DNA of 64,000 nucleotides from Deltaproteobacteria bacterium (lineage in GTDB: Bacteria; Desulfobacterota; Desulfomonilia; UBA1062), in assembly GCA_018433775.1 (NCBI GenBank), contig JAHDQN010000040.1, positions 20,587 through 84,586 on the forward strand, written 5' to 3'. Below the pieces are notes generated by a model, which worked only from the letters and a program-made list of their open reading frames with translations, ran no database searches and was not told the DNA's origin. The position numbers and the translations under genes were made by a program. Positions 3,881 through 34,789 of the stretch are shown here, one piece after another (position 1 is the stretch's first letter; each line of letters opens with the position of its first letter).

Positions 3881-3922
3881 AAATACTGCCCCCTATGGCT
3901 AACAACTTCCTCTACTGCATAA

Positions 3923-4311: not shown

Positions 4312-5946
<1,635 letters not shown>

Positions 5947-6122: not shown

Positions 6123-6271
6123 ATACTGAGAAATCATCGCCTGTACCACACCGCGCGACACCTCCCGGAGGGGGAAAAATCCCTGGCAACAGCCCCCGCG
6201 CACCGACCTCCGGCATAAACCCAGAAAAAACATTCCCGGGCGGCGGCAGGCTGCATCCACGGGCCACGGTC

Positions 6272-9200: not shown

Positions 9201-9481
9201 GTCTGGCCGCCCAGGGTCGGGAGTATGGCGTCGGGACGCTCCAGCTCGATTATCCTGGCCACCACCTCGGGCGTTATGGGCTCGATGTAGGTCCTGTCAG
9301 CGAGCTCCGGATCGGTCATGATGGTGGCCGGGTTCGAGTTGATGAGCACGACCCGGCAGCCCTCTTCCTTCAGGGCCTTGCAGGCCTGGACGCCCGAGTA
9401 GTCGAACTCGCACGCCTGGGAGATGACAATGGGTCCTGACCCGATGATGAGTATATTCTTCAGATCATTTCGTCGCGGCAT
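6272..9481 (-). CDS. carB: Carbamoyl-phosphate synthase large subunit
   Basis: The 1069-aa product has duplicated ATP-grasp halves and an MGS-like C-terminus. Confidence 0.95.
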
Positions 9482-9758
9482 GGTTTCCTTTTTTCTTGTG
9501 CGGTGAATTATCGCAAGTCGCAGATCAATGTCTCGTGCGGCATATCACGGCTGCACGTCCACTGTCTTCTCCTTTGTGGCGGCGATCGTCGTGCACCGGA
9601 CTCGAGTATCCTCTCTTGACGCAAGGCCTTAAACCGGCGTGCGCGATCTTCTTCAGGCAGGCAATGCCGTGAACAGACTCAGCGCCCGGACCGGGTGCTT
9701 GAGGAGACCGGCCGGGCAGCAGCCGCCCGAACAGGCATGCCTGCAGAATCGGGCCCTG

Positions 9759-10751: not shown

Positions 10752-10794
10752 GGATCTCTCTCTCCTCTCTCGATCTTTCCTGATGTTCCGCGGA

Positions 10795-12165: not shown

Positions 12166-12212
12166 GTAAAATCCTCCTTTGATCGTGTGTTCAGCTGGAA
12201 ATAATTCTGCCC

Positions 12213-13436: not shown

Positions 13437-13498
13437 ATACAGGCCAAATGAACGCCCTTTGTCAAAGAAAAAAATCGGTTCATCGTAATCTCCTTTAC

Positions 13499-16400: not shown

Positions 16401-17230
16401 AGGGCTCCGGGCGAGACGTGGATGGATCCGTCCATCAGGTCTCCGGGAGGGCAGCGCCTCATGAAGAGATCGTAAAGACCTGCAGCCTTAATCCTTTCCA
16501 TCACGTCCTTCATCTCCCGCGGGCCGGGAAAGCAGAACGCGGCCTGCACCCCGCAGGAGTCTCTGCCCCGCACCTCGAGCCGGTCGAGGGCATTGAGGGC
16601 GAAGTTGAGCCGCTGGTACTTCTCGAATGCCGTAAGCGCCAGCTGGCGGGAGTCTGCGCAGAGCGACGCGATCTTTTTCTGGTTCCCGAGCACGTCCTCA
16701 TGAAGCGCCCATGAGATGTCCTTGAGAAGGATCAGGGACCTCATGAGGTTCTCCATGTCGAGGGTGGAGAGCGAGGCCGCCTCCTTTTCCAGGATACGCT
16801 CCTCCTGGTCCACGAATGCGTCCATGTCCGCGCACAGGTTCTCGAGGCGGTCGAAAAGCTCCTTGCGAGCGAGCGTCCACTGGTTCCCGGAACTCTGCTT
16901 CAGACGGTACACGTCCTGTTCGAAAACCCGGAGCTCTTTGGGGTCGAGGTACTCATCCGGCGCGATCTCCCTGCCGAGCACCCTGTTCAGTGCACATGCC
17001 CGCACCTGGTCGAAGTGCAGACCGAGTATACGAAGGATGTCGTCACGTGGTGCATCCTCCCCGCCCCTGACGACCAGGATACCGGCCAGGCCGCACAGGA
17101 GCGTGCAGGGCTGGACAGGGAAAAGTACCACGGACCGGGCCGGGAGGTTCTTCGGCTCGCGTCCGATGTACAACCTCCACTGGGCTGTTTTCTTCATCAT
17201 TGCCCGCACTATCGCCTTCATAGCATCCAT
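13499..17230 (-). CDS. Atypical 1243-aa glutamine--fructose-6-phosphate aminotransferase (GlmS)-like protein
   Basis: Class-II amidotransferase motifs (LCGLAGILVV, RGRDSCG, HTRWAS.G...N.HP) are followed by two SIS domains (TQSGTTTDT). The protein also has a 43-aa N-terminal leader, a roughly 160-aa insertion and a roughly 340-aa C-terminal extension. Confidence 0.65.
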   Translation of the reverse strand: MDAMKAIVRAMMKKTAQWRLYIGREPKNLPARSVVLFPVQPCTLLCGLAGILVVRGGEDAPRDDILRILGLHFDQVRACALNRVLGREIAPDEYLDPKELRVFEQDVYRLKQSSGNQWTLARKELFDRLENLCADMDAFVDQEERILEKEAASLSTLDMENLMRSLILLKDISWALHEDVLGNQKKIASLCADSRQLALTAFEKYQRLNFALNALDRLEVRGRDSCGVQAAFCFPGPREMKDVMERIKAAGLYDLFMRRCPPGDLMDGSIHVSPGALIFTYKTALVTGDLGDNTRSLRASISADPILRLVMDHAPNSQMYLAHTRWASVGAINETNCHPVNNFAMDGESNEQWDFQTARKHYPFYGSGTWAINVVLNGDIDNHLPLKEGLQAIGCRIDPRVTTDTKIIPLVIERYLCQGHDLKEAFRRAVNDFEGSHAIAMESNLEPGRVFLGVKGSGQTIYVGICENQYVFSSEVYGLVEETPLFIKMDGERERVPGDECTRGQIFILDNAGGGGLGGIEAMYYDGRPLELGQGDIRRAEITTRDIDRGTFPHFLLKEILDAPESIRKTIRGKYRVEGGRRVAFNLDEAVVPAAVRDALVSGVIRRIYVVGQGTAAIAGAAVAEALAIYLKGTPISVLARKATDLSGFCLDEDMTDCLVIAITQSGTTTDTNRAVTMARERGAHLIAIVNRRQSDITTKVDGVFYTSDGRDIEMSVASTKAFYSQITAGYILALFMAQLMGALSRERIVREISRIEQSPKLMQEVIASREAIRSSAWDLVRKKKYWAVVGSGANKTASDEIRIKLSELCYKTISSDVIEDKKHIDLSSEPLILVCAAGSPDIVLEDVVKDVAIFHAHASSVVVIADQGEKRFDAIADSVIHVPRSGFPLSVILNTLAGHIWGYYAACSLDAQAGAFKPFRSSLSEIMRCQEKKGLSIYESIEDRDLHRCVDDFSAMFNSWRRSGMLTSMNVETASDITLLLKYAVGKLPIEDFWSEFGAHRVTASPLDELDSALGRAIDELSRPVDAIRHQAKTVTVGTSRRVEAPRGVIFDALEDLSFTVENIPARGGIVLKRLQDAISRINGYTLYAVGNLDDEGRPTEGSTIRTIGKHGVAAGMRSRFDETGTLMGTKKTIVRTGNVYAGEGKSDHASIVIVPLLNSLRAVEHLLLLHVDYCEDLDVERKKEILAEKYNDLRNLVDEYNVAWDDAYLERLPLRLLLGEDVETITSLIFERIGESRPSRI

Positions 17231-17332
17231 TTCCCCCGCGCCGTCGAGTCCTTCCGTCCCGTTTGCACGCAGTACTGCTCGCCCTTCTTAAGTTAGTATG
17301 TATTTTGCAGACAGCAAAAAAACAACTTCTCC

Positions 17333-18493
17333 CTACGAGATGTGCCGCATTCCGGCGGTCAAGCCTGCAGGCGAGCCCATCATTCCAAGAAATTCCCTGA
17401 AGAGATAGCCGGCGTCGTGAGGCCCGGGAGACGCCTCGGGATGATACTGAACGCTGAACGCCCGGTAGGCTGGATACCTGACGCCCTCCAGGGTCTGGTC
17501 GTTGAGATTGACGTGAGTGACCTCGGCATCTTTGGGCAGCGTTTCCGTGACCACGGAAAACCCGTGATTCTGCGAGGTGATCTCCACGCGGCCGGTCAGC
17601 AGGTTCCTCACCGGCTGGTTCACGCCGTGGTGGCCGAACTTGAGCTTCTCGGTCCTGGCGCCGAAGGCCTGGGAGAGTATCTGGTGCCCCAGGCAGATCC
17701 CGAAAATGGGCACCCTGCCCAGCAGGCGCCGGACGGTTTCGATCTCGCAGGCGAGCGGGGCCGGATCGCCCGGACCGTTGGACAGCATGATCCCGTCGGG
17801 CTCAAGCGCCAGGATATCCTCGGCCCGGGTGCGCGAGGGCATCAGAACGACCTGGCACCCCAGGCGCTCCAGGCTTCTGAGGATGTTGTGTTTTGCGCCG
17901 CAGTCGAGCACGACCACACGATGCCCGCTGCCTTTCTGCAGGGGTCCTTCAAGGGGCGCCGCTTTCCCGGACTTCCAGAGATGCGGCCGGGAGCAGGTCA
18001 CCGACGACACGATATCCCTTCCGGTCAGCCCGGGATAGGCGCGCACCTGCTCCAGAAGCTCCGGCACCTTGTCATACCGCGTGGACACGATCCCCCGCAT
18101 GGCGCCCGCGGTCCTGATCCTGCGGGTCAGCGCCCGGGTGTCCACCCCTTCGACCCCGATCCGGCCGAACTCCTCCAGGTAGCTCTGAAGCGTCCCGGTC
18201 GATCTCCAGTTGCTCGGATGGTGCTGATATTCCCTGACCACGAACCCCTTAAGGTGAATGGCGGGGGATTCCCGGTCCTGGTCGTTGATGCCGTAGCTTC
18301 CCATGAGGGGATAGGTCATAACGAGTATCTGCTCGCAATACGACGGATCGGTGAGCGCCTCCTGGTAGCCGGTCATGGCGGTGTTGAACACCACCTCGCC
18401 GCAGGCGTCACCGCCTCCGGCAAAGGCGCGGCCGCGGAAGACCGAACCGTCTTCCAAAACCACGACCGCCGGGCGCTTGTCTCGTGCTGACAT
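17333..18493 (-). CDS. carA: Carbamoyl-phosphate synthase small subunit
   Basis: The CPSase small-subunit N-domain and a class-I amidotransferase domain (GICLGHQ) are present. The start was trimmed to MSARDK, which has a GGAGGAGG site. Confidence 0.9.
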   Translation of the reverse strand: MSARDKRPAVVVLEDGSVFRGRAFAGGGDACGEVVFNTAMTGYQEALTDPSYCEQILVMTYPLMGSYGINDQDRESPAIHLKGFVVREYQHHPSNWRSTGTLQSYLEEFGRIGVEGVDTRALTRRIRTAGAMRGIVSTRYDKVPELLEQVRAYPGLTGRDIVSSVTCSRPHLWKSGKAAPLEGPLQKGSGHRVVVLDCGAKHNILRSLERLGCQVVLMPSRTRAEDILALEPDGIMLSNGPGDPAPLACEIETVRRLLGRVPIFGICLGHQILSQAFGARTEKLKFGHHGVNQPVRNLLTGRVEITSQNHGFSVVTETLPKDAEVTHVNLNDQTLEGVRYPAYRAFSVQYHPEASPGPHDAGYLFREFLGMMGSPAGLTAGMRHIS

Positions 18494-18580
18494 AGAATAC
18501 TCCCCTCCTCCTTCTCCCTTTGCTTCCTTATGCTGTCTGCCTTCTTCGCCTTCCCTGACACTGCAGTGGTAACCAGTCAT

Positions 18581-18717
18581 AGGGTCAGTCACATCATGGG
18601 GTCATCATGGGGTCAGGTCTCAACATATGACACCGGGAGTGTCATATGTTGAGACCTGACCCCGATCATGACCGGGAGTGTCATATGTTGAGACCTGACC
18701 CCGATCATGACCCTGAT
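18581..18717. repeat. Complex repeat: a 13-nt tandem (catcatggggtca x2), a perfect palindrome with 23-bp arms and a cggga loop (18611-18661), and two tandem 39-bp units (gggagtgtcatatgttgagacctgaccccgatcatgacc)
   Basis: Read directly from the sequence between the glnA stop and the carA start. Confidence 0.75.
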
Positions 18718-18807: not shown

Positions 18808-20139
18808 TTAGAGCAGCGGCAGATAGGTGTCGATCTCGTACTTGCTGACATGGGTCCTGAAGGCGTCCCACTCCTTCTTCTTGTTTTCTACGAACTTCTC
18901 GAAGATGTGGTCACCCAGGGCCTCCCTCACCAGCGTGCTCCCGGACACCTCCTGGATCGCCTCGAAGAGGTTGCCAGGCAGCGAGGTGATCCCGGCCTCC
19001 TCCCGCGCCTTCTCGTCCATCTCGAAGATATCCTTCTCGATGGGCTCGGGCAGGGTATACCCTTTTTCAATGCCCTCCAGCCCGGCCGCTATCTGCACCG
19101 CAAAGGCCAGGTAGGGGTTGCAGGCCGGGTCAGGCGCCCTGAACTCGATCCGGGTGGCCTTGGCCTTGCCCGGCTTGTACATGGGGACCCTGAGCATTGC
19201 CGAGCGGTTTCTCCTGGCCCAGGACACGTAGACCGGGGCCTCGTAGCCGGGAACGAGCCTCTTGTAGGAGTTCACCCACTGGTTGGTGACCGCGCAGATC
19301 TCCCGGGCGTGGTTGAGAATACCCGCGATGTAGTGCTTGCCCACCTTCGAGAGATGGTACTTGTCGCCCGCGTCGAAAAAGGCGTTGTCGTCGCCCGTGA
19401 ACAGCGACTGGTGGACGTGCATGCCGCTGCCGTTCTCGCAGGCGAGCGGCTTGGGCATGAAGGTGGCGTACACCCCGTGCTGGCGGGCGATCTCCTTGAC
19501 CGTGGTCCGGTAGGTCATGACGATGTCGGCCATGGTGAGCGCCTCTTTGTACCGCAGGTCGATCTCGTGCTGCGACGGGGCGACCTCGTGGTGGCTGTAC
19601 TCCACCTGGATGCCCATCTTCTGCAGGCTGAATATGGTGTCGCGCCGGATGTCGGGGCCCCGGTCGATGGGCAGGCCGTCGAAGTACCCTCCCCTGTCCA
19701 GGATGGTGGTGCACTTGTCGTCTGCGAAGTAGAAGTATTCCAGCTCCGGCCCGAGAAACACGTTGTACCCTTTCTCAGCCGCCCTGGCCAGCACGCGCTT
19801 GAGCGCGTATCGCGGGTCGCCTTCGTAGGGGGTGCCCTCCGGGGTCAGGATGTCGCACACCATGCGGGCCACGGGATAATCCGACGGTCTCCAGGGCAGG
19901 AGCTGGAAGGTGGCGGGGTCCGGCTTGGCGATCATGTCGCTCTCGTGGACCCGGGCAAAGCCCTCGATGGAGGACCCGTCGAAACCCATGCCCTCCTCGA
20001 TGCCTTCTTCAAGTTCCGAGGGCGTCAGATTGAAGCTCTTGAGCCTGCCCAGAACATCGGTGAACCAGAACTGTATGAAGCTGACCTTGTGTTCCTTTAC
20101 AGCCTTCATAACATCTTGCTTTGTCTTGCATTGTAACAT
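18808..20139 (-). CDS. glnA: Glutamine synthetase type I
   Basis: The GS beta-grasp and catalytic domains are present. The start was trimmed to MLQCK, which has a GGAGGA site. Confidence 0.9.
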   Translation of the reverse strand: MLQCKTKQDVMKAVKEHKVSFIQFWFTDVLGRLKSFNLTPSELEEGIEEGMGFDGSSIEGFARVHESDMIAKPDPATFQLLPWRPSDYPVARMVCDILTPEGTPYEGDPRYALKRVLARAAEKGYNVFLGPELEYFYFADDKCTTILDRGGYFDGLPIDRGPDIRRDTIFSLQKMGIQVEYSHHEVAPSQHEIDLRYKEALTMADIVMTYRTTVKEIARQHGVYATFMPKPLACENGSGMHVHQSLFTGDDNAFFDAGDKYHLSKVGKHYIAGILNHAREICAVTNQWVNSYKRLVPGYEAPVYVSWARRNRSAMLRVPMYKPGKAKATRIEFRAPDPACNPYLAFAVQIAAGLEGIEKGYTLPEPIEKDIFEMDEKAREEAGITSLPGNLFEAIQEVSGSTLVREALGDHIFEKFVENKKKEWDAFRTHVSKYEIDTYLPLL

Positions 20140-20187
20140 GGCTCGTCCTCCATTTTCGTCTTCTTGCATTATCAAGCGTTTCTTTGT

Positions 20188-22521
20188 CTATTCCAGGGGT
20201 TCGTTTTCCCTGAGCTCCCATATCCCGCACGGGCAGGCCCCTGCACAGAACCCGCACCCGATGCAGCGGTCGTCTTCGAGGCAGTACTCAAAGCCGCCTT
20301 CCGGGATGTCCTTCCGGAAGATTGCCTGACGGGGGCAAATCGCCTCGCATACCCCGCAGTCCCTGCATCCGCCGCAGGAGGCGCACATCTCCGAGCACTG
20401 TCCGATGTCCTCCGCAGCCCGGCGCCCCGGGTCGTAGTACTCGAGCCTCACCCGGCCGGCATCCATGGGTGACGGCGCTTCCGGCGGCCCGTGTACGCCT
20501 TTGATCAGCGCATCGATCGACTGCGACACCCTTCTGCCCGCACCGATGGCGTCGGTGATAAGCCCGGGCTTTACGCTGTCTCCGACGGCGTACACCTTTG
20601 GATCGGACGTGCGGCAACCATCGTCCGCCACGATGAAACCGTGACGGCTGTCTATGTCTTCGGGGAGGAATGATATGTCAGGCCGGTCGCCGATTGCAAC
20701 AACTACTGTATCACCCGGGAGAATTTTGCCGTCCGCAAGCTCGACGCCCGTGGCGTTTATCGCCCGTGCCGACACCGGCCAGAGAAACCGGGCACCCGCC
20801 CTTTCCGCAGCCGCGCGCTCGCGGCCGAAGGACGCGGGCTCCCGGACGTCGATCAGGGTGATTTCCTCAGCTCCCAGGCGGCTCGCCTCGGTGGCCGCAT
20901 CGCAGCCCACGTTGCCCGCGCCGATGATCACGACCCTGCCTCCAACCGTGATGTCGCCGCGCTTCGATCTTCGGAGAAAATCCAGTGCAGGCACCGCCAT
21001 CTCGCCACCCGGTATCCCGAGGGTGCAGGGAATCCCGGCACCCACGGCGATGACCGTGAAATCGTGACCTTCTTTCAGAGCCAGGAACTCCTTCTGACCG
21101 AACTCTCCCATTAGCCGTCTGAAAGAAATCTTTTCGAGAACCCGGCCGAGCTCCCTGCGGAACACCTCATCGGGAAAGCGGGTGCCCGGTATGGCCTCCG
21201 CGATCTTCCCGCCCGGCTCGGGCGACCGGTCGTACACCACGGGCTCGTGTCCCTTCATCCAGAGCTGCCAGGCAACGGACAACCCGGCCGGACCGGCCCC
21301 GAGGACCGCGACCTTCGCGCCCGTGGACGCACAAGGCCGGGGCTCGCGGGCATCCAGGCTCGCCCTGCCGAGCACGGTCACATCCACTGGGGTCATATGG
21401 TCCAGATTTCTGGTGCAGCTCTGCATGCACAGGTTCGGGCAGAGGTAACCGCACACCGTGGCCGGAAAAGGTGTGTACTGGAGCGCCAGGTCCACGGCCT
21501 CCTGCACCAGGCCCCTGCGGATGAGCTCCCAGCGCCTCTGCACCGGAATGCCGGCCGGGCAGGCCGCCTGGCAGGGCGGTACATGCTTGTGGTTTTCCCA
21601 TATGGGCGCGAACCTGCGCATCGGGCCGGTCGCGATCACCGGGACCTGGCCGCGGTCCATATCGGTGAGGTCCCCGATCAAGCCTCCCGTTCCCAGCTCC
21701 CGCTCCCATACCCGTGAACGGAACCGTGAAATGGATATCCGTTTCCCGCAGTCCTTCTCATGGGGCTCAAGCGCAGCGAGAAGCCGCCAGGCGGACCGGT
21801 CGCCGCTCAGCACATCGAGAAGATCCTCACGGCCGATGGCCCTCAAGAAATCCTTCATGCCGCTCTGAAGCCATTGCCAGTCCTCGTCGCCGATGCGGGT
21901 CATCCTGACGTCGGCCTCGCTGTAGCTCTTCTGGGTGCCGCGGAAGAAAATCCTGCCGCCCACCATGCCCACGCAGGGATTGTGCCCCAGGATATTGCCC
22001 CGATAATGCGAGCCCAGGCCGCATACCACGGCCACGCCACCGGCCATGAACTCGGCGAACGAATCGCCCACCCCTCCCAGGACCCAGAGCTCGGGCGGTG
22101 AGAACCGGGGGTTGCTCTTGGTCATGGTCATGCCCCTGGCGCCGATGTCGCCGGCAATATAGATCCTGCCCTGGGCCATGGCATTGGCGATGCCGTTGGT
22201 TGCATCGCCGTGCACCACGATGGTAGCACCTGCGTTGAGCCACCCCACATCATCGGATGCATGACCGTGAACCTCGATGAATGTGTGCGGTGATCCCATG
22301 GAGCCGATCCGCTGACCCGGGTGCCCATGGATGTCGATGAGCACCGGCTCCGGGCCGGTATTCCAGAGCCTGCCGCCGATCCCGTGCTGGCCGTAGGCCT
22401 GCACCTCGACCCTGGGGTATCCGCCTGCAACCGCCTTCTGGATGCGCTCTTCCAGAACCCGGGATTCCACCCGGCTCCCCTCTTCCATGCCCTGGATCAC
22501 GACCTTCTCGTGCCGGTTCAT
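20188..22521 (-). CDS. Glutamate synthase subunit: a GXGXG (GltB C-terminal) domain fused to a GltD-like NAD(P)H oxidoreductase and 4Fe-4S ferredoxin domains
   Basis: The N-terminal GXGXG-domain repeats are followed by a GAGPAG dinucleotide-binding site and C-terminal CxxCxxCxxxCP clusters. The start was trimmed to MNRHEK. Confidence 0.75.
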   Translation of the reverse strand: MNRHEKVVIQGMEEGSRVESRVLEERIQKAVAGGYPRVEVQAYGQHGIGGRLWNTGPEPVLIDIHGHPGQRIGSMGSPHTFIEVHGHASDDVGWLNAGATIVVHGDATNGIANAMAQGRIYIAGDIGARGMTMTKSNPRFSPPELWVLGGVGDSFAEFMAGGVAVVCGLGSHYRGNILGHNPCVGMVGGRIFFRGTQKSYSEADVRMTRIGDEDWQWLQSGMKDFLRAIGREDLLDVLSGDRSAWRLLAALEPHEKDCGKRISISRFRSRVWERELGTGGLIGDLTDMDRGQVPVIATGPMRRFAPIWENHKHVPPCQAACPAGIPVQRRWELIRRGLVQEAVDLALQYTPFPATVCGYLCPNLCMQSCTRNLDHMTPVDVTVLGRASLDAREPRPCASTGAKVAVLGAGPAGLSVAWQLWMKGHEPVVYDRSPEPGGKIAEAIPGTRFPDEVFRRELGRVLEKISFRRLMGEFGQKEFLALKEGHDFTVIAVGAGIPCTLGIPGGEMAVPALDFLRRSKRGDITVGGRVVIIGAGNVGCDAATEASRLGAEEITLIDVREPASFGRERAAAERAGARFLWPVSARAINATGVELADGKILPGDTVVVAIGDRPDISFLPEDIDSRHGFIVADDGCRTSDPKVYAVGDSVKPGLITDAIGAGRRVSQSIDALIKGVHGPPEAPSPMDAGRVRLEYYDPGRRAAEDIGQCSEMCASCGGCRDCGVCEAICPRQAIFRKDIPEGGFEYCLEDDRCIGCGFCAGACPCGIWELRENEPLE

Positions 22522-22570
22522 GCGTCCGCCCCCCGATGTCCGGGTGTTTTTTCTGTCATGGCCGGGCACC

Positions 22571-24205
22571 TCACACCACATACCTGATCTGAAGACGCTC
22601 GGCCGCATGAAAGTCGTCGATGCCGAGCGCGTCGGACATGCCGATGGGAAGAGAGGTGGACCTTCCCATGGGCGCGAGGATCTTCTTGAGTTCGGCGTCA
22701 AAGCTCAAAAACACGTCGACCAGCCGCCCGGCCACGTCTTCGGGGTCGAGCCTGCGGTAGAGTCTGGGGTCCTGCGAGGTGATCCCCTTGGGGCATCGGC
22801 CGAGGTTGCAGATGTTGCACCGGTCCCCCTCCGAACCGACGCACCCGGCCGCCGCCTGCATGAGATATTTGCCCACCTGAACCCCGCTTGCACCGAGCAT
22901 GATGAGCGCAGCGGCATTTGCCGCCAGGTTGCCGTTCTTTCCCGCGCCTCCTCCGGCGAAGAGAGGGATCTCGTTCTGCTTGCCGATCTTCACCAGGTTC
23001 AGGTATGCGTCTCGCACATTGGCGGCGATGGGATGGCCCATGTGGTTCATGGACACGTTGTATGCCGCTCCGGTTCCCCCGTCCTCGCCGTCGATGGCCA
23101 AGGCCGCCGCGTACCGGTTGCGCGCGATGTTGTTGAGCACGGCGGTCGTGGTGCTGGTAGCCGATATCTTCGGGTACACCGGCACCCTGAAGCCCCATGC
23201 CATTGAGAGCGACTGGATCATCTTGGCCACGGACTCCTCTATGGAGTATTTGGTCTGGTGCGTGGGCGGCGAGGGCAGGCTCACCCCGGGCGGCACCCCC
23301 CTGATGGCGGCGATGAGCCCGTTCACCTTATGCCACATGAGCAGCCCGCCGTCTCCGGGCTTGGCGCCCTGGCCGTACTTGATCTCGATGGCGCAGGGGT
23401 CTTCCTTCATCTCTGGCAGGGCGTGGATGATCTCGTCCCAGCCGAAATACCCGCTCGCGATCTGGAGGATCACATACTTGAGAAACCGCGACCTGAGCAG
23501 CCGCGGCGGGCACCCGCCCTCGCCCGTGGATATCCTCACGGGCATGCCAAGCTCCTCGTTCAGATAGGCCACGCCCATCTGGAGCCCCTCCCACATGTTC
23601 GGGGAGAGTGCCCCGAACGACATGCCGCCCACGATCAGGGGATAGATCTCCCGCACCGGTGGCGCCCATCCGTCCTCTTTTGCCGAGTTGAGGATCTCCT
23701 CGGGAGGCAGGATGCGCCCCAGGAGGGTCCTGAGCTCGAACTCGTGCCTGCCGGCGTCCAGGGCCGGGTCGGTGAGCATGGAGATGCGGACGAACTTGAT
23801 GCGGTCGAGCACGCTTGCCGTGTCGTTCCGCCTGCCTCCCCGCCGCCTCGGCTCTCCGCCCTGGTTGGCATGAAACTTCAGCTTGTCGGTCTCCTCGCTC
23901 CTTACGGGGAATATGGCGGAGTTGGGGCAGACGAACGAGCACATGCCGCACCCCACGCAGGCATGTGCCGGGTCGGTTTTCTGGTCGATCCCGTAATAAA
24001 CGCGGTAGACGTTTCCCGGCCTCTCGCCCAGGCCCATGAGAACCGGCACCTCCCGCCTGCGGTGCACGCCGAGCTCGATTGCCCTCACCGGGCACACCGC
24101 AGTGCACTGTCCGCACAGGGTGCACCGGTCCCTGTCCCAGCAGACGCGCCAGGGCAGGTCCCTGGGGCTCAGTGCAGATGGGTGCAGGGTTCCCATTGGC
24201 TCCAT
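22571..24205 (-). CDS. Glutamate synthase FMN-binding (central) domain subunit with N-terminal 2x[4Fe-4S] ferredoxin
   Basis: Two CxxCxxCxxxCP motifs precede the GltB FMN-domain motifs (GEGG, KYGQGAKPG.GG). The start was trimmed to MEPMG, which has a GGAGG site. Confidence 0.8.
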   Translation of the reverse strand: MEPMGTLHPSALSPRDLPWRVCWDRDRCTLCGQCTAVCPVRAIELGVHRRREVPVLMGLGERPGNVYRVYYGIDQKTDPAHACVGCGMCSFVCPNSAIFPVRSEETDKLKFHANQGGEPRRRGGRRNDTASVLDRIKFVRISMLTDPALDAGRHEFELRTLLGRILPPEEILNSAKEDGWAPPVREIYPLIVGGMSFGALSPNMWEGLQMGVAYLNEELGMPVRISTGEGGCPPRLLRSRFLKYVILQIASGYFGWDEIIHALPEMKEDPCAIEIKYGQGAKPGDGGLLMWHKVNGLIAAIRGVPPGVSLPSPPTHQTKYSIEESVAKMIQSLSMAWGFRVPVYPKISATSTTTAVLNNIARNRYAAALAIDGEDGGTGAAYNVSMNHMGHPIAANVRDAYLNLVKIGKQNEIPLFAGGGAGKNGNLAANAAALIMLGASGVQVGKYLMQAAAGCVGSEGDRCNICNLGRCPKGITSQDPRLYRRLDPEDVAGRLVDVFLSFDAELKKILAPMGRSTSLPIGMSDALGIDDFHAAERLQIRYVV

Positions 24206-25299
24206 CTCCTGACCTCCATCCGCGAGGCATCCACACAGGCGAGGTCGTATTTCATGGGCTGGAATTCGCAGTTTCCTTCCCGGACGGGAATGGCCCCGTC
24301 GAGCCCGCACATCTCGGAAGAGAAGGCGAACATCCCGGGCCTGCCTCCCACAACGCCCGGCCTGAGTTTCTTGCTGTCGTGGACCATGAAGAGTGTCTTG
24401 TCGGGCAGACACCCGATCACACAGTTGGGCCCGTCGATGGTGAGAAAACGGCAGCCGTGCTTGAGCCTTCTCAGAAACGCACTGTCCGGGTGCCTGGTCA
24501 GCTCCTCGTCCTTGAGCGGGGTGATGATGTGTTTGTAGGCATCGATCCCGAGCCCAAGCCGGTTTGCGGTGTAGTGCAGGATATGGGTGAACACCTCGGA
24601 GTCAGACTGATAGCCCGCATATCCGGGAAAACCCCGCGACATCAGATAATCCCGTATAGGCCCGAACGCGGTGTTCTCGCCGTTGGTCATGGTGGCGAAG
24701 CCCTGGAGAAAGAAGGGGTGGCAGGCATAGAGGGTAACGGCATAGTTGGTGTTCTGCCTGCCCTGGGCCATGATCACCCGCGCCTTCAGACTCTTCCGGT
24801 CGAGCCCGAGATATTCGGCTATGGCCAGGGGATCGCCTACTTCCTTGATCATGATCGTGTCCGGCCAGAAGGAAAAGACCATCATGGACCCGTCCTGCTC
24901 GCCCAGCCTCCTCAGGTCGATCCGGATCCTCATGAGCCGCGCCGCGATCTCGGCCTCGCTCAGGCCCTCCCACTCGAAAGGATACTCATACACCCGGATG
25001 AGGTACACGTCGCGTTTCGGGGTGCCCTCGGGCGGCTCCTTGGCGGGCCTGATGGAAAGCTTGAACTTGGTGAGCAGGCCCAGCTCCATCATGTAGCGAT
25101 CGAGCCTCTTGATCCCTTCCTGGGAGAAAACGCCCGAAAGGATGGGAGAACCCCTGAACTGTTCCAGGTCCCCGCCGAGGTCGGTCATGAACAGGCCGAC
25201 CCCGGAACCGTCGTGGCCTTCTTTCATGACGTCCAGGGCACGCAGGGCGACCATGGGCGAGAGCGGCTCGTTACTCGTTATGGCGAACAGACGGCACAC
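24169..25299 (-). CDS. Glutamate synthase class-II glutamine amidotransferase domain subunit
   Basis: It has an Ntn-type amidotransferase fold. The likely start is GTG, directly followed by Cys (M-CRLFAITS). A strong AAGGAGG site sits 11 nt upstream. The ORF track extends it to 25392. Confidence 0.65.
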   Translation of the reverse strand: MCRLFAITSNEPLSPMVALRALDVMKEGHDGSGVGLFMTDLGGDLEQFRGSPILSGVFSQEGIKRLDRYMMELGLLTKFKLSIRPAKEPPEGTPKRDVYLIRVYEYPFEWEGLSEAEIAARLMRIRIDLRRLGEQDGSMMVFSFWPDTIMIKEVGDPLAIAEYLGLDRKSLKARVIMAQGRQNTNYAVTLYACHPFFLQGFATMTNGENTAFGPIRDYLMSRGFPGYAGYQSDSEVFTHILHYTANRLGLGIDAYKHIITPLKDEELTRHPDSAFLRRLKHGCRFLTIDGPNCVIGCLPDKTLFMVHDSKKLRPGVVGGRPGMFAFSSEMCGLDGAIPVREGNCEFQPMKYDLACVDASRMEVRRWSQWEPCTHLH

Positions 25300-25587
25300 C
25301 TTGTTTTCGTCCTCCTTGTCGTGCTTGGACAGGAAAGAGCGAAATCCGTGCCATGGGTGCGGGTCCTGTTCCTTTCCGGAGCATCGGATCAATTTTATTC
25401 CATCGATTCCAGGTATTACAAAATAACATTACCCGGCCGGCACCATGTCTGCATCCGGAATTTCCCGGCGGAGCCGGTTTCCAGTATTTTCCAATAATGT
25501 TCGATCAGATATGCTTTGCACAATTTTGTTCCATCCTCCTCTTTCGTCCGCATGATCGTAATCCTTCGGTCAAGACCGCTCCATGAC

Positions 25588-28707: not shown

Positions 28708-30228
28708 TCAGCTCTTTTTCGCCTTGAACCTGTCGACGTCGATCCCGTATTTCTCCACCTTGTACTGGATGATGCGCTTGGTGGTGCCCAGGACCCGCGC
28801 GGCCTTGCTCTGGTTTCCCTTTGCATCCTTGAGGGCATCGACGATAAGGGAGCGCTCGTAGGCGCCGATGAGGCTGGAGAGCTGGCCCTGCTTCTTCTTC
28901 GCCGGAGCCACCACCTTCATCTGCAGCGAGGGCGGCAGGTGCGTGCTGTCGATGGTGTCGCCGCCCGCGAGCAGCACGGCCCGCTCGATGCAGTTTTCCA
29001 GCTCCCGGACGTTCCCGGGCCAGTGATAGGCGAGGAGCGAGTCGATGGCAGGGGTCGAGATCCGCTTGATGTGTTTGCCGAACTCGTGAGCGTATTTCTC
29101 CACGAAGTAGTCGGCCAGGAGCAGGATATCGCCTCCCCGCTCCTTGAGGGCCGGCATGTAGACCGGAAACACGTTGAGACGGTAGTAGAGGTCGGAGCGG
29201 AAACGCCCCGAGGCCGCGTCCTGCTCCAGGTCGCGGTTCGTGGCGGCGATGATGCGCACGTTGACCTTGACCGTCCGGGTGGTGCCCAGGGGTTGGAACT
29301 GCCGCTCCTGGATCACGCGCAGCAGCTTGGCCTGCGCCAGGGGCGAGAGCTCGCCCACCTCGTCAAGGAAGATGGTGCCCCCGTGTGCCTCCTCGAAACG
29401 GCCCCTCCGGCGCTGGCTCGCACCGGTGAACGCGCCTTTCTCGTGCCCGAAAAGCTCGCTCTCGATCAGGGTGTCGGGCATGGCGGCGCAGTTCACCTCG
29501 ATGAAGGGTCCCGCGGCGCGGGGTGAGTTACGGTGAATGGCCCTGGCCACCAGCTCCTTTCCGGTGCCGGTCTCGCCGTGGATGAGAACCGTGGTGTTGG
29601 AATCCGCGACCTGGGAGATCAGCCCGAAGATCTCCTTCATGCCTTTCGAGTTGCCTACGATCTCGGAGGCCGGCCTCTGGGTCCTGCCCAGGATGTTTTT
29701 CAGCCGCCGGTTCTCTTCTTCGATTGCGCGCGTGTGCACCGCCTTGGCGATCAGGCCCGCCACCTCGGAGAGGTATCGGATCTCGTAGTCCTGGCTGTCG
29801 ACCTGCCGGGCCACCTTGTCGGCGGAGAGCACGCCCACGACCTTGCCGTCGTAGATGATGGGCACGCAGAGGAACGAGAGCTCGGAGCGGTCCAGGAACT
29901 TTCTGGCCCCGGTGCGGTCGAGAAAATGCTCCTCCTTGCCCAGGTTCGCGATCACCATGGGCTTGCCGGTCTGGGCCACCTGGCCCGTAATCCCCTCGCC
30001 CGGTTTGTAGGTGATGTCGAGGCCCTCGATGTCCACACCGTGGGCCAGATCCAGGATCGCCTCCCCCGTGTCCCGGTCGAGGATGGAGATCATGCCGCGG
30101 TCCATCCCGGTCTTCTCGCTCAGAGTCTCGAGCACCTGTTCGAGCTGTTCCCGCAAGTCAAGGGGGGTAGCGAGAATCCGGGCCAGATCGTGGAGAACAT
30201 CCAGGTCTTCGTACTCAAAAAGTGTCAT
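28708..30228 (-). CDS. Sigma-54-dependent transcriptional activator with an N-terminal GAF domain (NifA/Fis family)
   Basis: The AAA+ sigma-54 interaction domain (GETGTGKE, GAFTGA) and a C-terminal Fis-type HTH are present. Confidence 0.85.
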   Translation of the reverse strand: MTLFEYEDLDVLHDLARILATPLDLREQLEQVLETLSEKTGMDRGMISILDRDTGEAILDLAHGVDIEGLDITYKPGEGITGQVAQTGKPMVIANLGKEEHFLDRTGARKFLDRSELSFLCVPIIYDGKVVGVLSADKVARQVDSQDYEIRYLSEVAGLIAKAVHTRAIEEENRRLKNILGRTQRPASEIVGNSKGMKEIFGLISQVADSNTTVLIHGETGTGKELVARAIHRNSPRAAGPFIEVNCAAMPDTLIESELFGHEKGAFTGASQRRRGRFEEAHGGTIFLDEVGELSPLAQAKLLRVIQERQFQPLGTTRTVKVNVRIIAATNRDLEQDAASGRFRSDLYYRLNVFPVYMPALKERGGDILLLADYFVEKYAHEFGKHIKRISTPAIDSLLAYHWPGNVRELENCIERAVLLAGGDTIDSTHLPPSLQMKVVAPAKKKQGQLSSLIGAYERSLIVDALKDAKGNQSKAARVLGTTKRIIQYKVEKYGIDVDRFKAKKS

Positions 30229-30334
30229 ACGGCTTTTCCTTTATCGCTTTCGCGTCGTGTCTTCGCATCGCTCATACGGTTTTCTCCCGCGGAATCCCTT
30301 TCCCTCGTTGAAGGATCCGGAACCCGCCTCTTCC

Positions 30335-32983
30335 CTATCCTTCAAAAAAGCACACCACCTTCTGCTGCACCACATTCGAGACGATTCGCACCTTTTTGTC
30401 GCGTACATCGAAGACCCGGACCACGTCCCGGTATCTTCTCTCCTCGGGCAGAACCTTTTCCAGGATATCGGTAAGACCGTCCTGCCACGATGAGTTGTAG
30501 TACACATCCTCTTTCCAGGGGAAAATGGCCACGAAGAAGATCCGGTTCTCCACGAGGTCCTGGAAAAAGTGCGTGCCGTAGGAGAGCTCGGGCATGAGGT
30601 TGCCCTCGATGGATGCGATCTCTCCCAGGACCGTCATATTGCAGATCTCGGAGAAGTGTACCGGCACACCCAGGGAGGGCGTGGTGGTCCCCCACCTGCC
30701 GGGCCCCAGGAGCATGGTGGACAGGTCGGTGCGTACGGGAGCCTGCCGGTTCAGGATTCCCACCACCCGGCCGATGTCGTACTTCCGCTGCAGCGGGAGA
30801 TCCATATAGGCACGGGGCTCCACAGAGATGATGCGGTCGATGGACTGCGAGATGCTGCCTCCCATGAAGTTGCCGTTCATGCGGAACAGGACGTTCCTGT
30901 CGTCCACCTGCCCGGGAAACTCCACGGGCCTCTCCTCGCCGATGGTCTGCAGCGGCCGGCACTGGACCAGATTTATCCGGAATTCGTCCGGGCCCGTGAA
31001 ATTGATCGTGAACTCGATGTCGACGGGATAATCGTAGCCTTTCTCCAAAACCTTCATCATGGATTGCATCAGGGAGGGGAAATCGGAGCTGGAGAGGAAG
31101 TCGTCAAAGGTGATGATCCATGCATCGTGATCCTCCCTGCCGTACTCCCTGAGCCTTTGGCTCGCCTCGTCGTCGAACACAGCGATGCTCTGGAGGGGCA
31201 TGTCGATGCGCTCGCGGGCGAGACCTGCAAACGCACGGGTCTGGAGCTCGTTGTCGTGGATGTTGATCACGTCCACGCTGTGCTGGGAGAAGGCGCGCAG
31301 TTCGTCCATTCCGGCAAAGGGCCGTTTCAGGGGGTCGTCCAGGGCCACCAGCCGGGGATAGTCCCCTTCCACCCGGTCCACGGCCCGAGTTCCCAGACCG
31401 AGCACCATCCTGAGCATGCCTGCCTTCGGGTCCATGCCCTCCTTCCAGACAAAGGTGTTGTAGGACACCCCCACCCCGCCGATATCCGGGAAGAAATACG
31501 GCCCGCGGTAGGAGCCGGACACCCGCTGGACCAGCAGGGCCATCTGCTCGTCCTGGGATTCCAGCCCCCGCTGCCTGCGGTAGATAAGGGCGCTCTCGTC
31601 CATGGTGCTGGCGAAAATCCGCTTCACCGCAGCTTCGAACCCGGCATAGCGCTCCTCGGGCGAGCCCTGGTTCGCGCAGAAGACGCTCTCATACTTGCCG
31701 GCAAAGGCGTTGCCGAAGGAGTCTTCCAGCAGCGAGCTGGAGCGCACGATGATGGGCGACTGTCCGAAGTACTCGATAATCTGGTAGAAGTGCTCCTTGA
31801 TGTCGTCCGGGAACACCCCCTCGCGCATCCTCTCTGCGAGCACCGGCGCCATGCTGAAAAACCCCTCGGGCGTCTTCTGCTCCATGCGCAGCTTCCAGCA
31901 GCCGTTGTTGACGAGATAGGAATAAAAGACGTCGGAGCCGATGTAGAACGAGTCGTGAGGCTCCAGACGGTTGTCCCAGTCCCTGCCCGTGTCCTCGGCC
32001 AGGAGCTTCCGGGAGAGCAGGAGCCCCACGGTCTTGCCGCCGATGAAGCCCGATCCGATGAGGCGCGCCTTGATGTCCAGAAGATCCTCCAGACTCAGGT
32101 GCTCCTTGACCAGGGCGGACATCCGCGGATCGCGGGTGATCATGAGGTCGCAGAGCAGAGAGACCATCCGCCGCCGCTCCTGCTCCCCGGCATTGGACGG
32201 GGTCAGGCCCTCGGCCTCCATGAAGAGCCTGTCCCAGTAATCCAGGTTCCTCCTCGAGCTCTCCGTGAACCGCGACATGTGCGTGAAGAGCTTCGAGGCG
32301 TCAACGCTGCTGGTCACGGGCATGAACCTGTCCCCCTTTTCCAGGTGGGGCAGGAACATGGTGGGAGAATAGCGTTTCCAGACCTTCAGCGGCTGGACAT
32401 AGAAATCGCTGTCACAGTTGTAGGCATCCAGCAGAACCTGGGTGGTCTCCCTGATCCGCGCCACGGTTGCATAGGAATGACGGTTTCTCACCAGGGCGAA
32501 GTAGGCGACGGTCTTGAGCTCGAAGAGGTAGGGACAGGTGATGAGAAAGAAGTTTCCGATCATCAGGTCCGTGGCCCATGCCGAGAGCAGATCGGAAAGG
32601 CTGTCGAACACATAGTACGTCCCTTCCCCCTCGCCGGTGATGATCGTGTGCACCTGGGTGGAGAACGTCTCGAACCCCTGGTTCGAATCCAGGCGATGGA
32701 TGGTGAGACCTTCCCGGGGCCGCACCAGGGGCTCGTGCCGGGCGAAACGCATGTAGACGACCCGGTTGCGGTCATCGAGCGCCCTGGCCACGAACCGCTC
32801 CGCGATGCCCTGATAATCGCGGATGTCGTCAACCTGCCAGACCACGTTGTCGCCCGGCCGCAGCCAGTCGATGACGGGATCGAGGCCTTCGAGACCTGTA
32901 CTGACGTGATCGATCGCCTTCATGGAATTATCCCGTAGCACATTTCGATTCACTATTGAAGCCTGTTCATAGTTTTTCAACAA
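30335..32983 (-). CDS. 882-aa protein with a central PPDK_N / PEP-synthase-like ATP-grasp nucleotide-binding domain, flanked by N- and C-terminal domains of unknown function
   Basis: The central domain shows GFIGGKTVGL and VRSSSLLEDSFGNAFAGKYES. The C-terminus has GPGRWGT. No confident function can be assigned. Confidence 0.5.
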   Translation of the reverse strand: MLKNYEQASIVNRNVLRDNSMKAIDHVSTGLEGLDPVIDWLRPGDNVVWQVDDIRDYQGIAERFVARALDDRNRVVYMRFARHEPLVRPREGLTIHRLDSNQGFETFSTQVHTIITGEGEGTYYVFDSLSDLLSAWATDLMIGNFFLITCPYLFELKTVAYFALVRNRHSYATVARIRETTQVLLDAYNCDSDFYVQPLKVWKRYSPTMFLPHLEKGDRFMPVTSSVDASKLFTHMSRFTESSRRNLDYWDRLFMEAEGLTPSNAGEQERRRMVSLLCDLMITRDPRMSALVKEHLSLEDLLDIKARLIGSGFIGGKTVGLLLSRKLLAEDTGRDWDNRLEPHDSFYIGSDVFYSYLVNNGCWKLRMEQKTPEGFFSMAPVLAERMREGVFPDDIKEHFYQIIEYFGQSPIIVRSSSLLEDSFGNAFAGKYESVFCANQGSPEERYAGFEAAVKRIFASTMDESALIYRRQRGLESQDEQMALLVQRVSGSYRGPYFFPDIGGVGVSYNTFVWKEGMDPKAGMLRMVLGLGTRAVDRVEGDYPRLVALDDPLKRPFAGMDELRAFSQHSVDVINIHDNELQTRAFAGLARERIDMPLQSIAVFDDEASQRLREYGREDHDAWIITFDDFLSSSDFPSLMQSMMKVLEKGYDYPVDIEFTINFTGPDEFRINLVQCRPLQTIGEERPVEFPGQVDDRNVLFRMNGNFMGGSISQSIDRIISVEPRAYMDLPLQRKYDIGRVVGILNRQAPVRTDLSTMLLGPGRWGTTTPSLGVPVHFSEICNMTVLGEIASIEGNLMPELSYGTHFFQDLVENRIFFVAIFPWKEDVYYNSSWQDGLTDILEKVLPEERRYRDVVRVFDVRDKKVRIVSNVVQQKVVCFFEG

Positions 32984-33085
32984 TATTTAGCCCATTTATA
33001 TTCTTTGAACAATATTGTACCATATACTTTTTGCCATTTGCAGAATTATACCTTATTTATCATAAAGTTATACCTTCCTGGGCAG

Positions 33086-33101
33086 CTGGCACCCCCCTTG
33101 C
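33086..33101 (+). promoter_or_regulatory. Sigma-54 (-24/-12) promoter upstream of amtB
   Basis: The sequence is TGGCAC-ccccc-TTGCT, about 48 nt upstream of the amtB ATG. Confidence 0.6.
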
Positions 33102-33148
33102 TCACCCTGAACAAGCATAAGCCTTGTGATGAAAGGAGACCCATTTTT

Positions 33149-34354
33149 ATGATTTCTTCAGGTGATACCGCTTGGATGCTTGTCGCAACCGCACTGGTCA
33201 TGCTCATGACGCCGGGGCTCTCCCTGTTCTACGGAGGCCTCGTGCGCTCGAAGAACGTTCTGGGCACCATGATGCAGAGCTTCATCTGCCTGGGGCTGGT
33301 TTCCGTCCTCTGGATAGCTTATGGTTACAGCCTGGCCTTCTGCGGCGATGCGGGTGGAGTCATCGGCACCTTCCGGTGGGTCGGCCTTAAGGGGGTGGGG
33401 ATCGATGCCGGGCCTTATTCCGACACCATACCCCATCTGCTCTTCGCGGCCTTCCAGCTCATGTTCGCCATCATCACCCCGGCTCTGATCACCGGCGCGT
33501 TTGCCGAACGAATGAAATTCTCCGTGTTTCTCCTCTTTGTCATCCTCTGGAGCACGTTCGTGTATCTTCCGGTGTGCCACTGGGTCTGGGGCGGAGGCTG
33601 GCTGGGCAGGCTGGGAGCGCTCGACTTTGCCGGCGGCACGGTCATCCACGTCAACTCCGGCACGGCCGCACTGATGGCGGTCCTCGTCATCGGGAGGCGC
33701 AAAGGCTACAAAACCCAGCCCATCTATCCCCACAACCTTCCGCTCACCGTGCTCGGCGCATCGCTTCTGTGGTTCGGATGGTTCGGGTTCAATGCGGGCA
33801 GCGCCCTGGCAGCAAACGGAACCGCCACCCTGGCGTTCTTTACCACACAGGTCGCCACTGGCACCGCGGCGCTCTCGTGGATCCTGGCCGAAAAGATCAT
33901 CCGGGGAAAACCCACCACCTTGGGAGCGGTGTCCGGGGCGGTTGCCGGCCTGGTAGCCATCACCCCGGCGGCAGGGTTCGTGGGACCTGTCTCGGCGATC
34001 ATCATCGGCTTCGTGGCGGGAATCCTCTGCTATCTGGCGGTACTGCTCAAGGAGCGGATCGGGTACGACGACTCTCTCGACGTGGTGGCTGTCCACGGCA
34101 TCGGAGGTCTCTGGGGGGCGCTCGCCACCGGTCTGTTCGCTTCGGTGGGGGCCAGCGGCCTGTTCTTTGGGAATGCCCATCAGTTCTTCGTCCAGATAAT
34201 CGGTGCAGGCAGCGCGATCATCTACTCGGGCATTGTCACCACGATCATCCTCCTGGTGCTGAAATACACCGTGGGCCTGCGGGTGAGCGAGGAAGAGGAG
34301 ATCCAGGGCCTGGATGTGAGCCAGCACAACGAATCCGGATACGCTATCCGCTGA
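33149..34354 (+). CDS. amtB: Ammonium transporter
   Basis: It is an Amt/MEP family protein with 11-12 transmembrane helices. The start was trimmed to MISSGDTAW, which has a GGAG site. Confidence 0.9.
   Translation: MISSGDTAWMLVATALVMLMTPGLSLFYGGLVRSKNVLGTMMQSFICLGLVSVLWIAYGYSLAFCGDAGGVIGTFRWVGLKGVGIDAGPYSDTIPHLLFAAFQLMFAIITPALITGAFAERMKFSVFLLFVILWSTFVYLPVCHWVWGGGWLGRLGALDFAGGTVIHVNSGTAALMAVLVIGRRKGYKTQPIYPHNLPLTVLGASLLWFGWFGFNAGSALAANGTATLAFFTTQVATGTAALSWILAEKIIRGKPTTLGAVSGAVAGLVAITPAAGFVGPVSAIIIGFVAGILCYLAVLLKERIGYDDSLDVVAVHGIGGLWGALATGLFASVGASGLFFGNAHQFFVQIIGAGSAIIYSGIVTTIILLVLKYTVGLRVSEEEEIQGLDVSQHNESGYAIR

Positions 34355-34432: not shown

Positions 34433-34789
<357 letters not shown>

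Follow-up and report, generated by a model that had tools for sequence, protein, structure and literature searches.

The 64-kb stretch of DNA analysed here (the window; ~62% G+C) belongs to contig JAHDQN010000040.1 of a Deltaproteobacteria bacterium and carries, on its minus strand, a gene for a three-domain protein of 862 amino acids (aa), hereafter called the target. Nitrogen assimilation probably includes the target family as an overlooked component, because this family lies inside ammonium-uptake and glutamate/glutamine gene clusters in at least seven phyla. The role that we favor, with moderate confidence, is that of an ATP-driven, histidine-phosphorylated regulatory enzyme that would act on the glutamate/glutamine node in the manner of VadK or EI-Ntr. 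As far as our searches show, the fusion of the N-terminal domain to the rest of the protein, the unrecognizable putative carrier domain and the role in nitrogen assimilation are new with respect to the literature and to family libraries; the catalytic module is known. AmtB/GlnK, glutamine synthetase (GS), glutamate synthase (GOGAT) and glutamate dehydrogenase (GDH) are regarded as a closed parts list, whose control is known mainly from Proteobacteria, Firmicutes, cyanobacteria and methanogens. The family described here, which is unnamed and has a Pfam model for only one of its three domains, is ~860 aa long, about as conserved as GS, and found in the nitrogen operons of Desulfobacterota, Planctomycetota, Omnitrophota, Spirochaetota, Margulisiibacteriota and Clostridia.

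Nitrogen-assimilation genes around the target family

Homologues of the target were examined at 84 loci, 80 from species-representative genomes (52-61% identity) and 4 from assemblies. These loci had been selected for their similarity to the target, and many of the contigs are short. Neighboring open reading frames (ORFs) were called and clustered without prior labels, after which the largest clusters were named by means of seeds from the window and Pfam. At least one of 11 nitrogen-assimilation families was found within five genes of the target in 68 of the 84 loci, and these span at least seven phyla. By group, the nitrogen-linked loci were 22/28 in Desulfobacterota, 18/21 in Planctomycetota, 14/16 in Omnitrophota, 5/6 in Spirochaetota, 3/3 in Margulisiibacteriota, 2/3 in Clostridia and 1/1 in Aegiribacteria. 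Pieces of the GOGAT large subunit were the most frequent neighbors (39 loci), followed by GDH (33), a GltD-like subunit (25), AmtB (21), GlnK (20), a GAF/sigma-54 activator (20), GS (19), CarB (15), the nitrogen repressor homologue NrpR (14), CarA (11) and CTP synthase (10). The share of ORFs in these families was 43% within 2 kb of the target and 16% at 8-10 kb. The association with nitrogen genes is far beyond chance, and it recurs in other phyla.

Three layouts were seen repeatedly. Omnitrophota and Planctomycetia have amtB-glnK-glnA-(activator)-gltB-gltD-TARGET-pyrG/carAB; in Phycisphaerae and Pirellulales an activator-TARGET pair is divergent from amtB-glnK-glnA; and in Syntrophales and Syntrophorhabdus the target adjoins nrpR-gdh. 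The gene directly beside the target was the activator in 15 loci and NrpR in 9, and the estimated gaps are operon-like (~3 bp after the activator in 8/9 cases; ~11-12 bp after the GltD-like GOGAT subunit in 9/14). The initial annotation, made from the window alone, had linked the target to nitrogen status, and the 68 loci, their spread over at least seven phyla, these gaps and a fused GAF domain homologous to that of the activator (see below) all strongly support this link. It had also paired the target with the GAF activator. That pairing does recur in other genomes (20/84 loci), but it is not a general rule, GOGAT and GDH being commoner neighbors. Since GlnD was near the target in none of the 84 loci, the adjacency of glnD is particular to the window. 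Median identity across the loci was 56% for the target, a figure that is biased upward because the loci were picked by similarity to it, as compared with 61% for GS, 60% for CarB, 59% for PyrG, 50% for the activator and 46% for GlnK.

A database search returned at least 8000 matches to the target family, counted as clusters at 90% identity, the best 120 of which are 48-100% identical and essentially full length. Taxon names on the few named matches include Desulfomonilia, Desulfobacterales, Planctomycetota, Sedimentisphaerales, Omnitrophota and Geobacter, and the closest named relatives are metagenome-assembled genomes (MAGs) of Desulfomonilia (72-76% identity). The only functional names among the matches were "PEP/pyruvate-binding domain-containing protein" and "phosphoenolpyruvate synthase". 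Two variant architectures occur among the best 120 matches: 12 members (~1055 aa) have an N-terminal GAF domain, and 7 (~1460-1500 aa) are tandem forms, in which a copy of the ATP-grasp and C-terminal domains without the N-terminal domain is followed by a full copy. The fused GAF shares 38% identity (E 7e-36) with that of the window activator, and the GAF of E. coli PtsP is 23-28% identical to both. The window target has no GAF domain, the adjoining activator having one; GAF-fused members are encoded in purF-carA-guaA-carB-[GAF-TARGET] operons, in the vicinity of which there is no activator. The GAF domains of NifA and PtsP sense 2-oxoglutarate or glutamine status. Since the same module is supplied either in trans or in cis, the family appears to be tied to the signal that a NifA-type GAF senses.

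Several further associations were observed at these loci. Bacterial homologues of NrpR, an archaeal nitrogen repressor, with a winged helix and an NRD1_2 domain lie beside gdh and the target in Syntrophales, Syntrophorhabdus, Margulisiibacteriota and others (loci L002, L003, L010, L012, L041, L042, L049, L056, L063, L071, L075 and L080). A PyrK-like Fe-S flavoprotein (DHODB_Fe-S_bind) and a GltD-like protein, which we take to be an NfnAB-like NADPH-generating pair, are encoded next to gdh at L009, L057, L072, L074 and L076. A Gcw_chp-family protein is encoded immediately upstream of amtB at L008, L014, L015, L032, L061 and L062, its carriers being Planctomycetota, Aegiribacteria and a Syntrophaceae (Desulfobacterota) MAG (L062); where the contig reaches that far, its gene separates amtB from the activator-target pair. 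The tandem gene of Geobacter sp. OR-1, the only carrier among those met here whose genome was neither metagenome-assembled nor from a single cell, is flanked by genes for a 1149-aa alpha-amylase-family protein and for Pgi.

Domain architecture of the target

The initial annotation had described the gene as an ORF of 882 aa. The ORF exists (30335..32983, minus strand) and its translation includes VRSSSLLEDSFGNAFAGKYES, but its length is to be corrected to 862 aa, with the start at the ATG at 32923 instead of the TTG at 32983. The ATG start is that of an identical database protein of 862 aa (P0001; 100% identity across 100% of the query) and agrees with ~100 homologues of 858-875 aa; the TTG-started extension amounts to 20 codons inside AT-rich intergenic DNA. 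A 789-aa antisense ORF (30569..32938, plus strand) and other overlapping ORFs were taken as high-GC artefacts in view of the thousands of homologues of the minus-strand frame.

The sole Pfam match in the target is PPDK_N (PF01326; E 1.4e-46, residues 294-667), in agreement with the nucleotide-binding ATP-grasp domain that had been placed at the center of the protein. Neither PF00391 (PEP-utilizers) nor PF02896, the phosphoenolpyruvate (PEP)/pyruvate TIM barrel, found a Pfam match. Since PF02896 is without a match and the protein ends ~195 aa past the ATP-grasp, the target has no such barrel, as had also been proposed. Of the two flanking regions, which had been put at ~290 and ~260 aa and called unassignable, the N-terminal one was sized correctly (~293 aa) and contains a domain of KaiC/RecA fold, whereas the C-terminal one is shorter (~195 aa) and only weakly matches a swivelling fold.

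Structure searches assigned the N-domain (residues 1-205) a RecA-like alpha/beta core fold of the KaiC/RecA superfamily, by matches to solved structures. In the AlphaFold2 (AF2) model and the alignment, strand 26-31 (NVVWQV) meets helix 34-50 via 'DD', which replaces the Walker A P-loop. The P-loop motif GxxxxGK(T/S), or Gly-Lys-Thr, is present in none of the aligned family members. Invariance was judged on an alignment (A3) of 44 sequences with identity down to 36%, in which a Walker-B-like Asp107 (YVFD107, after a hydrophobic strand) is invariant and Glu85 nearly so. Because the P-loop is missing while these residues are kept, we regard the N-domain as a pseudo-ATPase. A phmmer search of the N-domain against 1.84 billion representatives gave 910 matches. 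Among the best 150 of these, the N-domain occurs solely in the architecture of the target, the long matches all being ~825-917 aa apart from one tandem form. Conservation of the N-domain nearly equals that of the catalytic center.

The ATP-grasp domain retains all the canonical PPDK_N nucleotide and Mg motifs in 44 of 44 sequences, with GGK297, RSSS394-397, ED400-401, GK409-410, E637 and QCR654-656 invariant. At the profile level, it matched PEP synthases in the PDB (E 1.2e-10), and nothing outside the ATP-grasp was matched when the whole protein and profiles A1 and A3 were compared with PDB sequences. The best solved-structure match of this central region is rifampin phosphotransferase (RPH). 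The fusion of the N-domain to a dikinase-type module is absent from all solved structures among the matches.

The C-domain has two conserved loops, GPGRWGTTTP and PELS(Y/F)G(T/S)HFFQDLVE, and its only strictly invariant residue is His785. In the AF2 model and in a separate model of the C-domain (pLDDT 82), His785 opens a helix after a strand and a flexible, low-confidence loop. Structure comparison of the C-domain model placed maize pyruvate phosphate dikinase (PPDK), RPH, Enzyme I, EI-Ntr, RraA and chaperonin apical domains among its lower-ranking matches, a set that we take to represent the "swivelling beta/beta/alpha" fold class. This fold assignment is weak. Foldseek found nothing under E 0.1 for the C-domain in the PDB; a C-domain profile matched only a phosphoketolase among PDB sequences, at chance level (E 1.1); and Pfam gave no match at E 10 for 22 C-domain sequences. 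In hhalign comparisons with the His domains of E. coli PpsA, PtsI and PtsP, and then with a non-redundant PF00391 alignment of 25 sequences, the probability was at most 0.7%, so homology of the C-domain to PF00391 is undemonstrated. A carrier role is nonetheless favored by the position of the C-domain directly after the ATP-grasp, by its order of strand, flexible loop, (T/S)-His, helix and strand, and by the invariance of His785, which is a plausible phospho-histidine. The invariant ATP-grasp motifs together with His785 suggest that the target catalyzes phosphotransfer, in line with the phosphotransfer protein or regulatory kinase that the initial annotation had tentatively proposed.

The ammonia and glutamine gene cluster of the window

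A single ammonia/glutamine supercluster takes up ~4-38 kb of the window, with the target midway (Table 1). The flanking GAF-containing sigma-54 activator that the initial annotation had reported was confirmed by Pfam (GAF, Sigma54_activat, AAA lid and HTH_8). It scores slightly below the cut-off of the NCBIfam NifA model TIGR01817 (518.7 bits; cut-off 528.85) and lies on the same strand, 106 bp downstream of the target; terminator prediction in the gap was negative. Beyond it, the minus-strand order is pdxR/pdxST, three-piece GOGAT, glnA, carA, a gene for a GlmS-like protein, glmM, carB and pyrG. The families of the window pyrG, carB and carA also flank target homologues in other phyla. The GS translation (GSI-alpha) has no adenylylation motif. 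No nif genes were present among the annotated window ORFs, which cover about 4-42 kb.

Table 1. Position of the target, its domains and neighboring features in the window
Feature	Position	Strand	Basis
pyrG, carB, glmM, 1243-aa GlmS-like protein, carA (rest of glutamine-amidotransferase array)	4312..18592	-	Pfam, neighbor clustering
glnA (GSI-alpha type) and three-piece GOGAT	18808..25392	-	Pfam, GS translation, promoter search
Candidate sigma-54 promoter ahead of GOGAT, one mismatch	25338-25353	-	
NifA-like enhancer-binding protein (GAF + sigma-54 AAA+ + Fis-type helix-turn-helix)	28708..30228	-	Pfam, NCBIfam
Target gene (862 aa, three domains; stop codon included)	30335..32923	-	ORF list, translation, database homologues
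C-domain, residues 668-862, possible swivelling beta/beta/alpha-like fold, candidate phospho-carrier	30338..30922	-	
His785 codon, candidate phosphorylated histidine	30569..30571	-	Alignment A3; codon position verified by translation
PPDK_N-type ATP-grasp nucleotide-binding domain, residues 294-667	30923..32044	-	
Helical linker, residues 206-293, with conserved RNLDYWDRLF helix	32045..32308	-	AF2 secondary structure, alignment
N-domain, residues 1-205, KaiC/RecA-fold pseudo-ATPase	32309..32923	-	
Divergent target/amtB intergenic region, AT-rich	32924..33149	.	Sequence, promoter scan
Weak sigma-70-like site for target	32980-32952	-	Promoter scan
Direct repeat AACAATATT in target/amtB intergenic region, 29-bp spacing	32979-32987 and 33008-33016		
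Sigma-54 promoter TGGCACCCCCCTTGCT, 48 nt before amtB ATG	33087..33102	+	
amtB (true ATG 33150)	33150-34354	+	Pfam, translation
glnK, Tyr51 present	34451-34789	+	Pfam, translation
glnD	34817-37300	+	Pfam, translation

On the other side of the target, the divergent sigma-54-driven amtB-glnK-glnD operon was found as previously described: TGGCACCCCCCTTGCT, ahead of amtB, has zero mismatches to TGGCAC-N5-TTGCW (-24 GG / -12 GC) and is the sole zero-mismatch site in the window, and glnK and glnD follow amtB. The divergent control region that the target was said to share with this operon stands as regards the sigma-54 promoter of amtB, but not as regards one for the target itself, upstream of which no sigma-54 site with up to two mismatches occurs in the window. 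The direct repeat AACAATATT in this region may be a regulator binding site; no element like it lies upstream of the GOGAT sigma-54 promoter. No upstream activator site of 8 bp or more is common to the amtB and GOGAT sigma-54 promoters, nor was TGT-N10-ACA found.

Other features of the window were recorded as well. The segment 4312-25392 on the minus strand is a 21-kb same-strand array that holds nearly every glutamine-amidotransferase pathway behind the candidate promoter at 25338-25353. Within it, the 1243-aa protein (13499-17230, minus strand) contains GATase_6/7 and SIS domains and is ~2x the normal length of GlmS, with ~600 extra residues that have no assignment. The GOGAT (20188-25392, minus strand) is archaeal-style and consists of three ORFs: one with a weak GATase match, one with FMN/Fer4, and one in which GXGXG is joined to a GltD-like FAD/NAD(P) domain. 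The GOGAT ORF calls overlap at 22571-22701 and 24169-24412, making the called starts provisional. Between the GOGAT operon and the activator (25785-28602), a MocR/PdxR-type GntR-aminotransferase regulator is divergent from pdxS-pdxT, PdxT being a glutamine amidotransferase. Two ORFs of the supercluster, 9639-10871 (plus strand) and 12213-13706 (minus strand), gave no Pfam match, and the former overlaps the minus-strand ORF 9759-10751. Positions 1-4000, with 39% G+C as compared with ~62% elsewhere, contain four minus-strand ORFs. One of these (1327-2028) has DUF4145 and a PADLOC match to PD-T7-4 (E 1e-8), another (2131-2985) is a DEDDh RNase_T exonuclease with BRCT and a PADLOC match to PDC-S48 (E 2e-28), and the remaining two gave no matches. 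This segment looks like a small, horizontally acquired defence island adjoining pyrG.

Proposed function and comparison with known systems

In the mechanism that we propose, the ATP-grasp, with its invariant motifs, would bind Mg-ATP and phosphorylate His785 of a mobile C-domain, as happens in PEP synthase, PPDK, RPH and VadK; for the C-domain of the target, the fold evidence is weak. More speculatively, the phosphorylated C-domain may dock on the N-domain, which lacks a P-loop but keeps the Walker-B Asp and a Glu, and either hand on the phosphoryl group or alter the binding of a partner. The target would presumably thereby control, at the post-translational level, the flux at the 2-oxoglutarate/glutamate/glutamine node, with GOGAT, GDH, GS, GlnK and the GAF activator as candidate partners. 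Nitrogen status could be sensed by a NifA-type GAF, in trans from the adjoining activator or in cis by fusion.

In favor of regulation are the regulator genes beside the target, the fusion to GAF and the RecA fold of the N-domain. Several observations weigh on the other side. Gene clustering is no less compatible with a metabolic enzyme than with a regulator, and conservation as high as that of the target is more typical of enzymes. No nitrogen context was found in 16 of the 84 loci. The tandem members at L004 (Geobacter sp. OR-1), L088 and L089 lie outside nitrogen clusters, and neither glycogen nor nitrogen genes formed a consistent context for those of Geobacter sp. OR-1 and two metagenome contigs. 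Sigma-54 promoters are not enriched upstream of the target (3/78 loci, as compared with ~10% of intragenic controls), and neither is GGAA-N6-TTCC, the NrpR operator of methanogens (1/79 loci). Finally, topic-directed searches found no literature on the family.

The main rival explanation, which we consider unlikely although it deserves serious attention, is that the target is a metabolic enzyme, i.e., a small-molecule 'X, water dikinase' or PigC-like ligase that acts on a nitrogen-pathway metabolite with the N-domain as its substrate site. Such an enzyme would use phosphorylation to activate a hydroxyl or carbonyl oxygen, so that, for instance, an amination could be driven; the enzymes encoded around the target all aminate ATP-activated oxygens. 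Conservation on a par with GS, CarB and PyrG is in line with this explanation, as are operons that hold enzymes (GOGAT, CarAB, PyrG, PurF and GuaA) and not regulators alone, and most of the characterized PPDK_N-family members met here use small molecules (PEP synthase, RPH and HpeI). However, no candidate substrate turned up, RecA-fold pseudo-ATPases are better known for oligomerization and for binding protein or nucleic acid than for small-molecule catalysis, the gene is often directly beside the activator or NrpR, and the GAF fusion suits signalling at least equally. A particular form of enzyme, to which we give little credence, would be AMP-forming and His-mediated and would constitute an unrecognized catalytic step of ammonia assimilation instead of a regulator. 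It would spend two phosphoanhydride bonds on activating a carbonyl or hydroxyl oxygen (e.g., that of 2-oxoglutarate) for attack by ammonia, and would supply GDH or GOGAT in energy-limited anaerobes when ammonium concentrations are very low.

A NifL-like modulator, dedicated to the GAF/sigma-54 activator and setting transcription of amtB-glnK and GOGAT-glnA, is a doubtful alternative. The target is beside the activator in the window and in 15 of the 84 other loci, with the ~3-bp gap in nearly all of the activator-then-target cases, a homologous GAF is fused to 12 of the best 120 matches, and sigma-54 promoters precede both amtB and GOGAT in the window. Nevertheless, no activator occurs within five genes in three quarters of the loci or near the GAF-fused members, the catalytic motifs are fully kept, and 56% identity across phyla would be unusual for a partner-specific modulator, the activator itself being at ~50%. 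It is quite improbable that the target is a catalytically silent scaffold or ATP/AMP sensor that organizes nitrogen-assimilation enzymes, perhaps as a KaiC-like ring. Its N-domain is indeed a pseudo-ATPase of a ring-forming fold, and homology of the C-domain to PF00391 is undetectable, but all the ATP-grasp nucleotide and Mg motifs and His785 are invariant in 44 divergent members, which argues for catalysis.

We see very little chance that the target is a xenobiotic or secondary-metabolite phosphotransferase of the RPH or PigC/RedH type with nitrogen genes adjacent by accident, even though RPH is the best structural match of the center and weak NCBIfam matches to RPH and PigC were obtained. 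The RPH model (NF041857) gave 28.3 bits against a cut-off of 999, and the prodigiosin ligases PigC/RedH gave 35.1 against 1300 and 26.3 against 1350. These matches are confined to ~100 ATP-grasp residues, the structural model has no rifampin-binding insert of ~430 aa, PADLOC returned no defence-protein match for the target, and the nitrogen context is kept in at least seven phyla. On the scores against RPH and PigC, the outcome that the initial annotation had named as contradicting a nitrogen role, a known phosphotransferase for antibiotics or for ribosomally synthesized and post-translationally modified peptides (RiPPs), is not borne out. Least credible of all is a genuine, divergent PEP synthase or PPDK, to which only the database names point. 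The TIM barrel is absent, PF02896 and PF00391 are both unmatched, and the NCBIfam PEP synthase scores are 52 and 38 against cut-offs of 883 and 740.

Among known systems, NifL-NifA resembles the pair in the window in that the gene for a large ATP-binding protein adjoins that for a GAF-containing NifA-like sigma-54 activator and is probably transcribed together with it. It differs in that the target has no PAS or histidine-kinase-like domain, the family mostly lacks an activator nearby, and there are no nif genes among the window ORFs annotated at about 4-42 kb; a NifL-like role fits the window but not the three quarters of loci without an activator. The KaiC/RecA-superfamily pseudo-ATPases (Elp4-6, the BcsE N-domain, FlaH and PH0284) have a fold related to the N-domain of the target, which has the 'DD' turn in place of a P-loop and, unlike these matches, is fused to a dikinase-type module. 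Instead of the N-terminal RecA-fold pseudo-ATPase, which would be the acceptor module of the target, the His-dependent dikinases (RPH, PEP synthase, PPDK, HpeHI and phenylphosphate synthase) have a TIM barrel or a rifampin-binding domain. The target further differs from these dikinases in a carrier that is unrecognizable as PF00391 and in its nitrogen-assimilation context.

The two closest parallels to the regulatory enzyme that we favor are EI-Ntr (PtsP) and VadK. EI-Ntr, a His-phosphoenzyme linked to a GAF domain, reports nitrogen status. Its donor is PEP, used via a TIM barrel, whereas that of the target would be ATP, used via the ATP-grasp; it has an N-terminal NifA-type GAF, which the window target lacks; and no gene for an HPr/NPr-like acceptor was seen in the neighborhoods of the 84 loci. 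VadK (Rv1127c) of Mycobacterium tuberculosis is a truncated PPDK without the TIM barrel, which autophosphorylates on His422 and regulates methylcitrate-cycle enzymes by binding them (PMC13400623). At the level of architecture, VadK and the target are alike in that a His-bearing domain comes after a PPDK-type ATP-binding domain and the TIM barrel is missing, and autophosphorylation on histidine combined with binding of pathway enzymes is the mode that we propose for the target. VadK differs in being ~490 aa long, in having a recognizable PPDK His domain and no KaiC-like N-domain, and in belonging to the methylcitrate cycle and to Actinobacteria. The target scored 18.5 bits (cut-off 456) against NF004531 (PRK05878), a short 'pyruvate, phosphate dikinase' model of 534 positions that we assume to cover VadK-type proteins, a score that indicates independent derivation of the target and not membership. 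Should the target prove to regulate the glutamate/glutamine node through a phospho-His, it would represent a new layer of post-translational control, a functional counterpart of GlnE/GlnD, PknG-GarA or PTS-Ntr in many environmentally dominant anaerobes, and, next to VadK, a second and independent instance in which metabolic regulation has recruited a dikinase scaffold.

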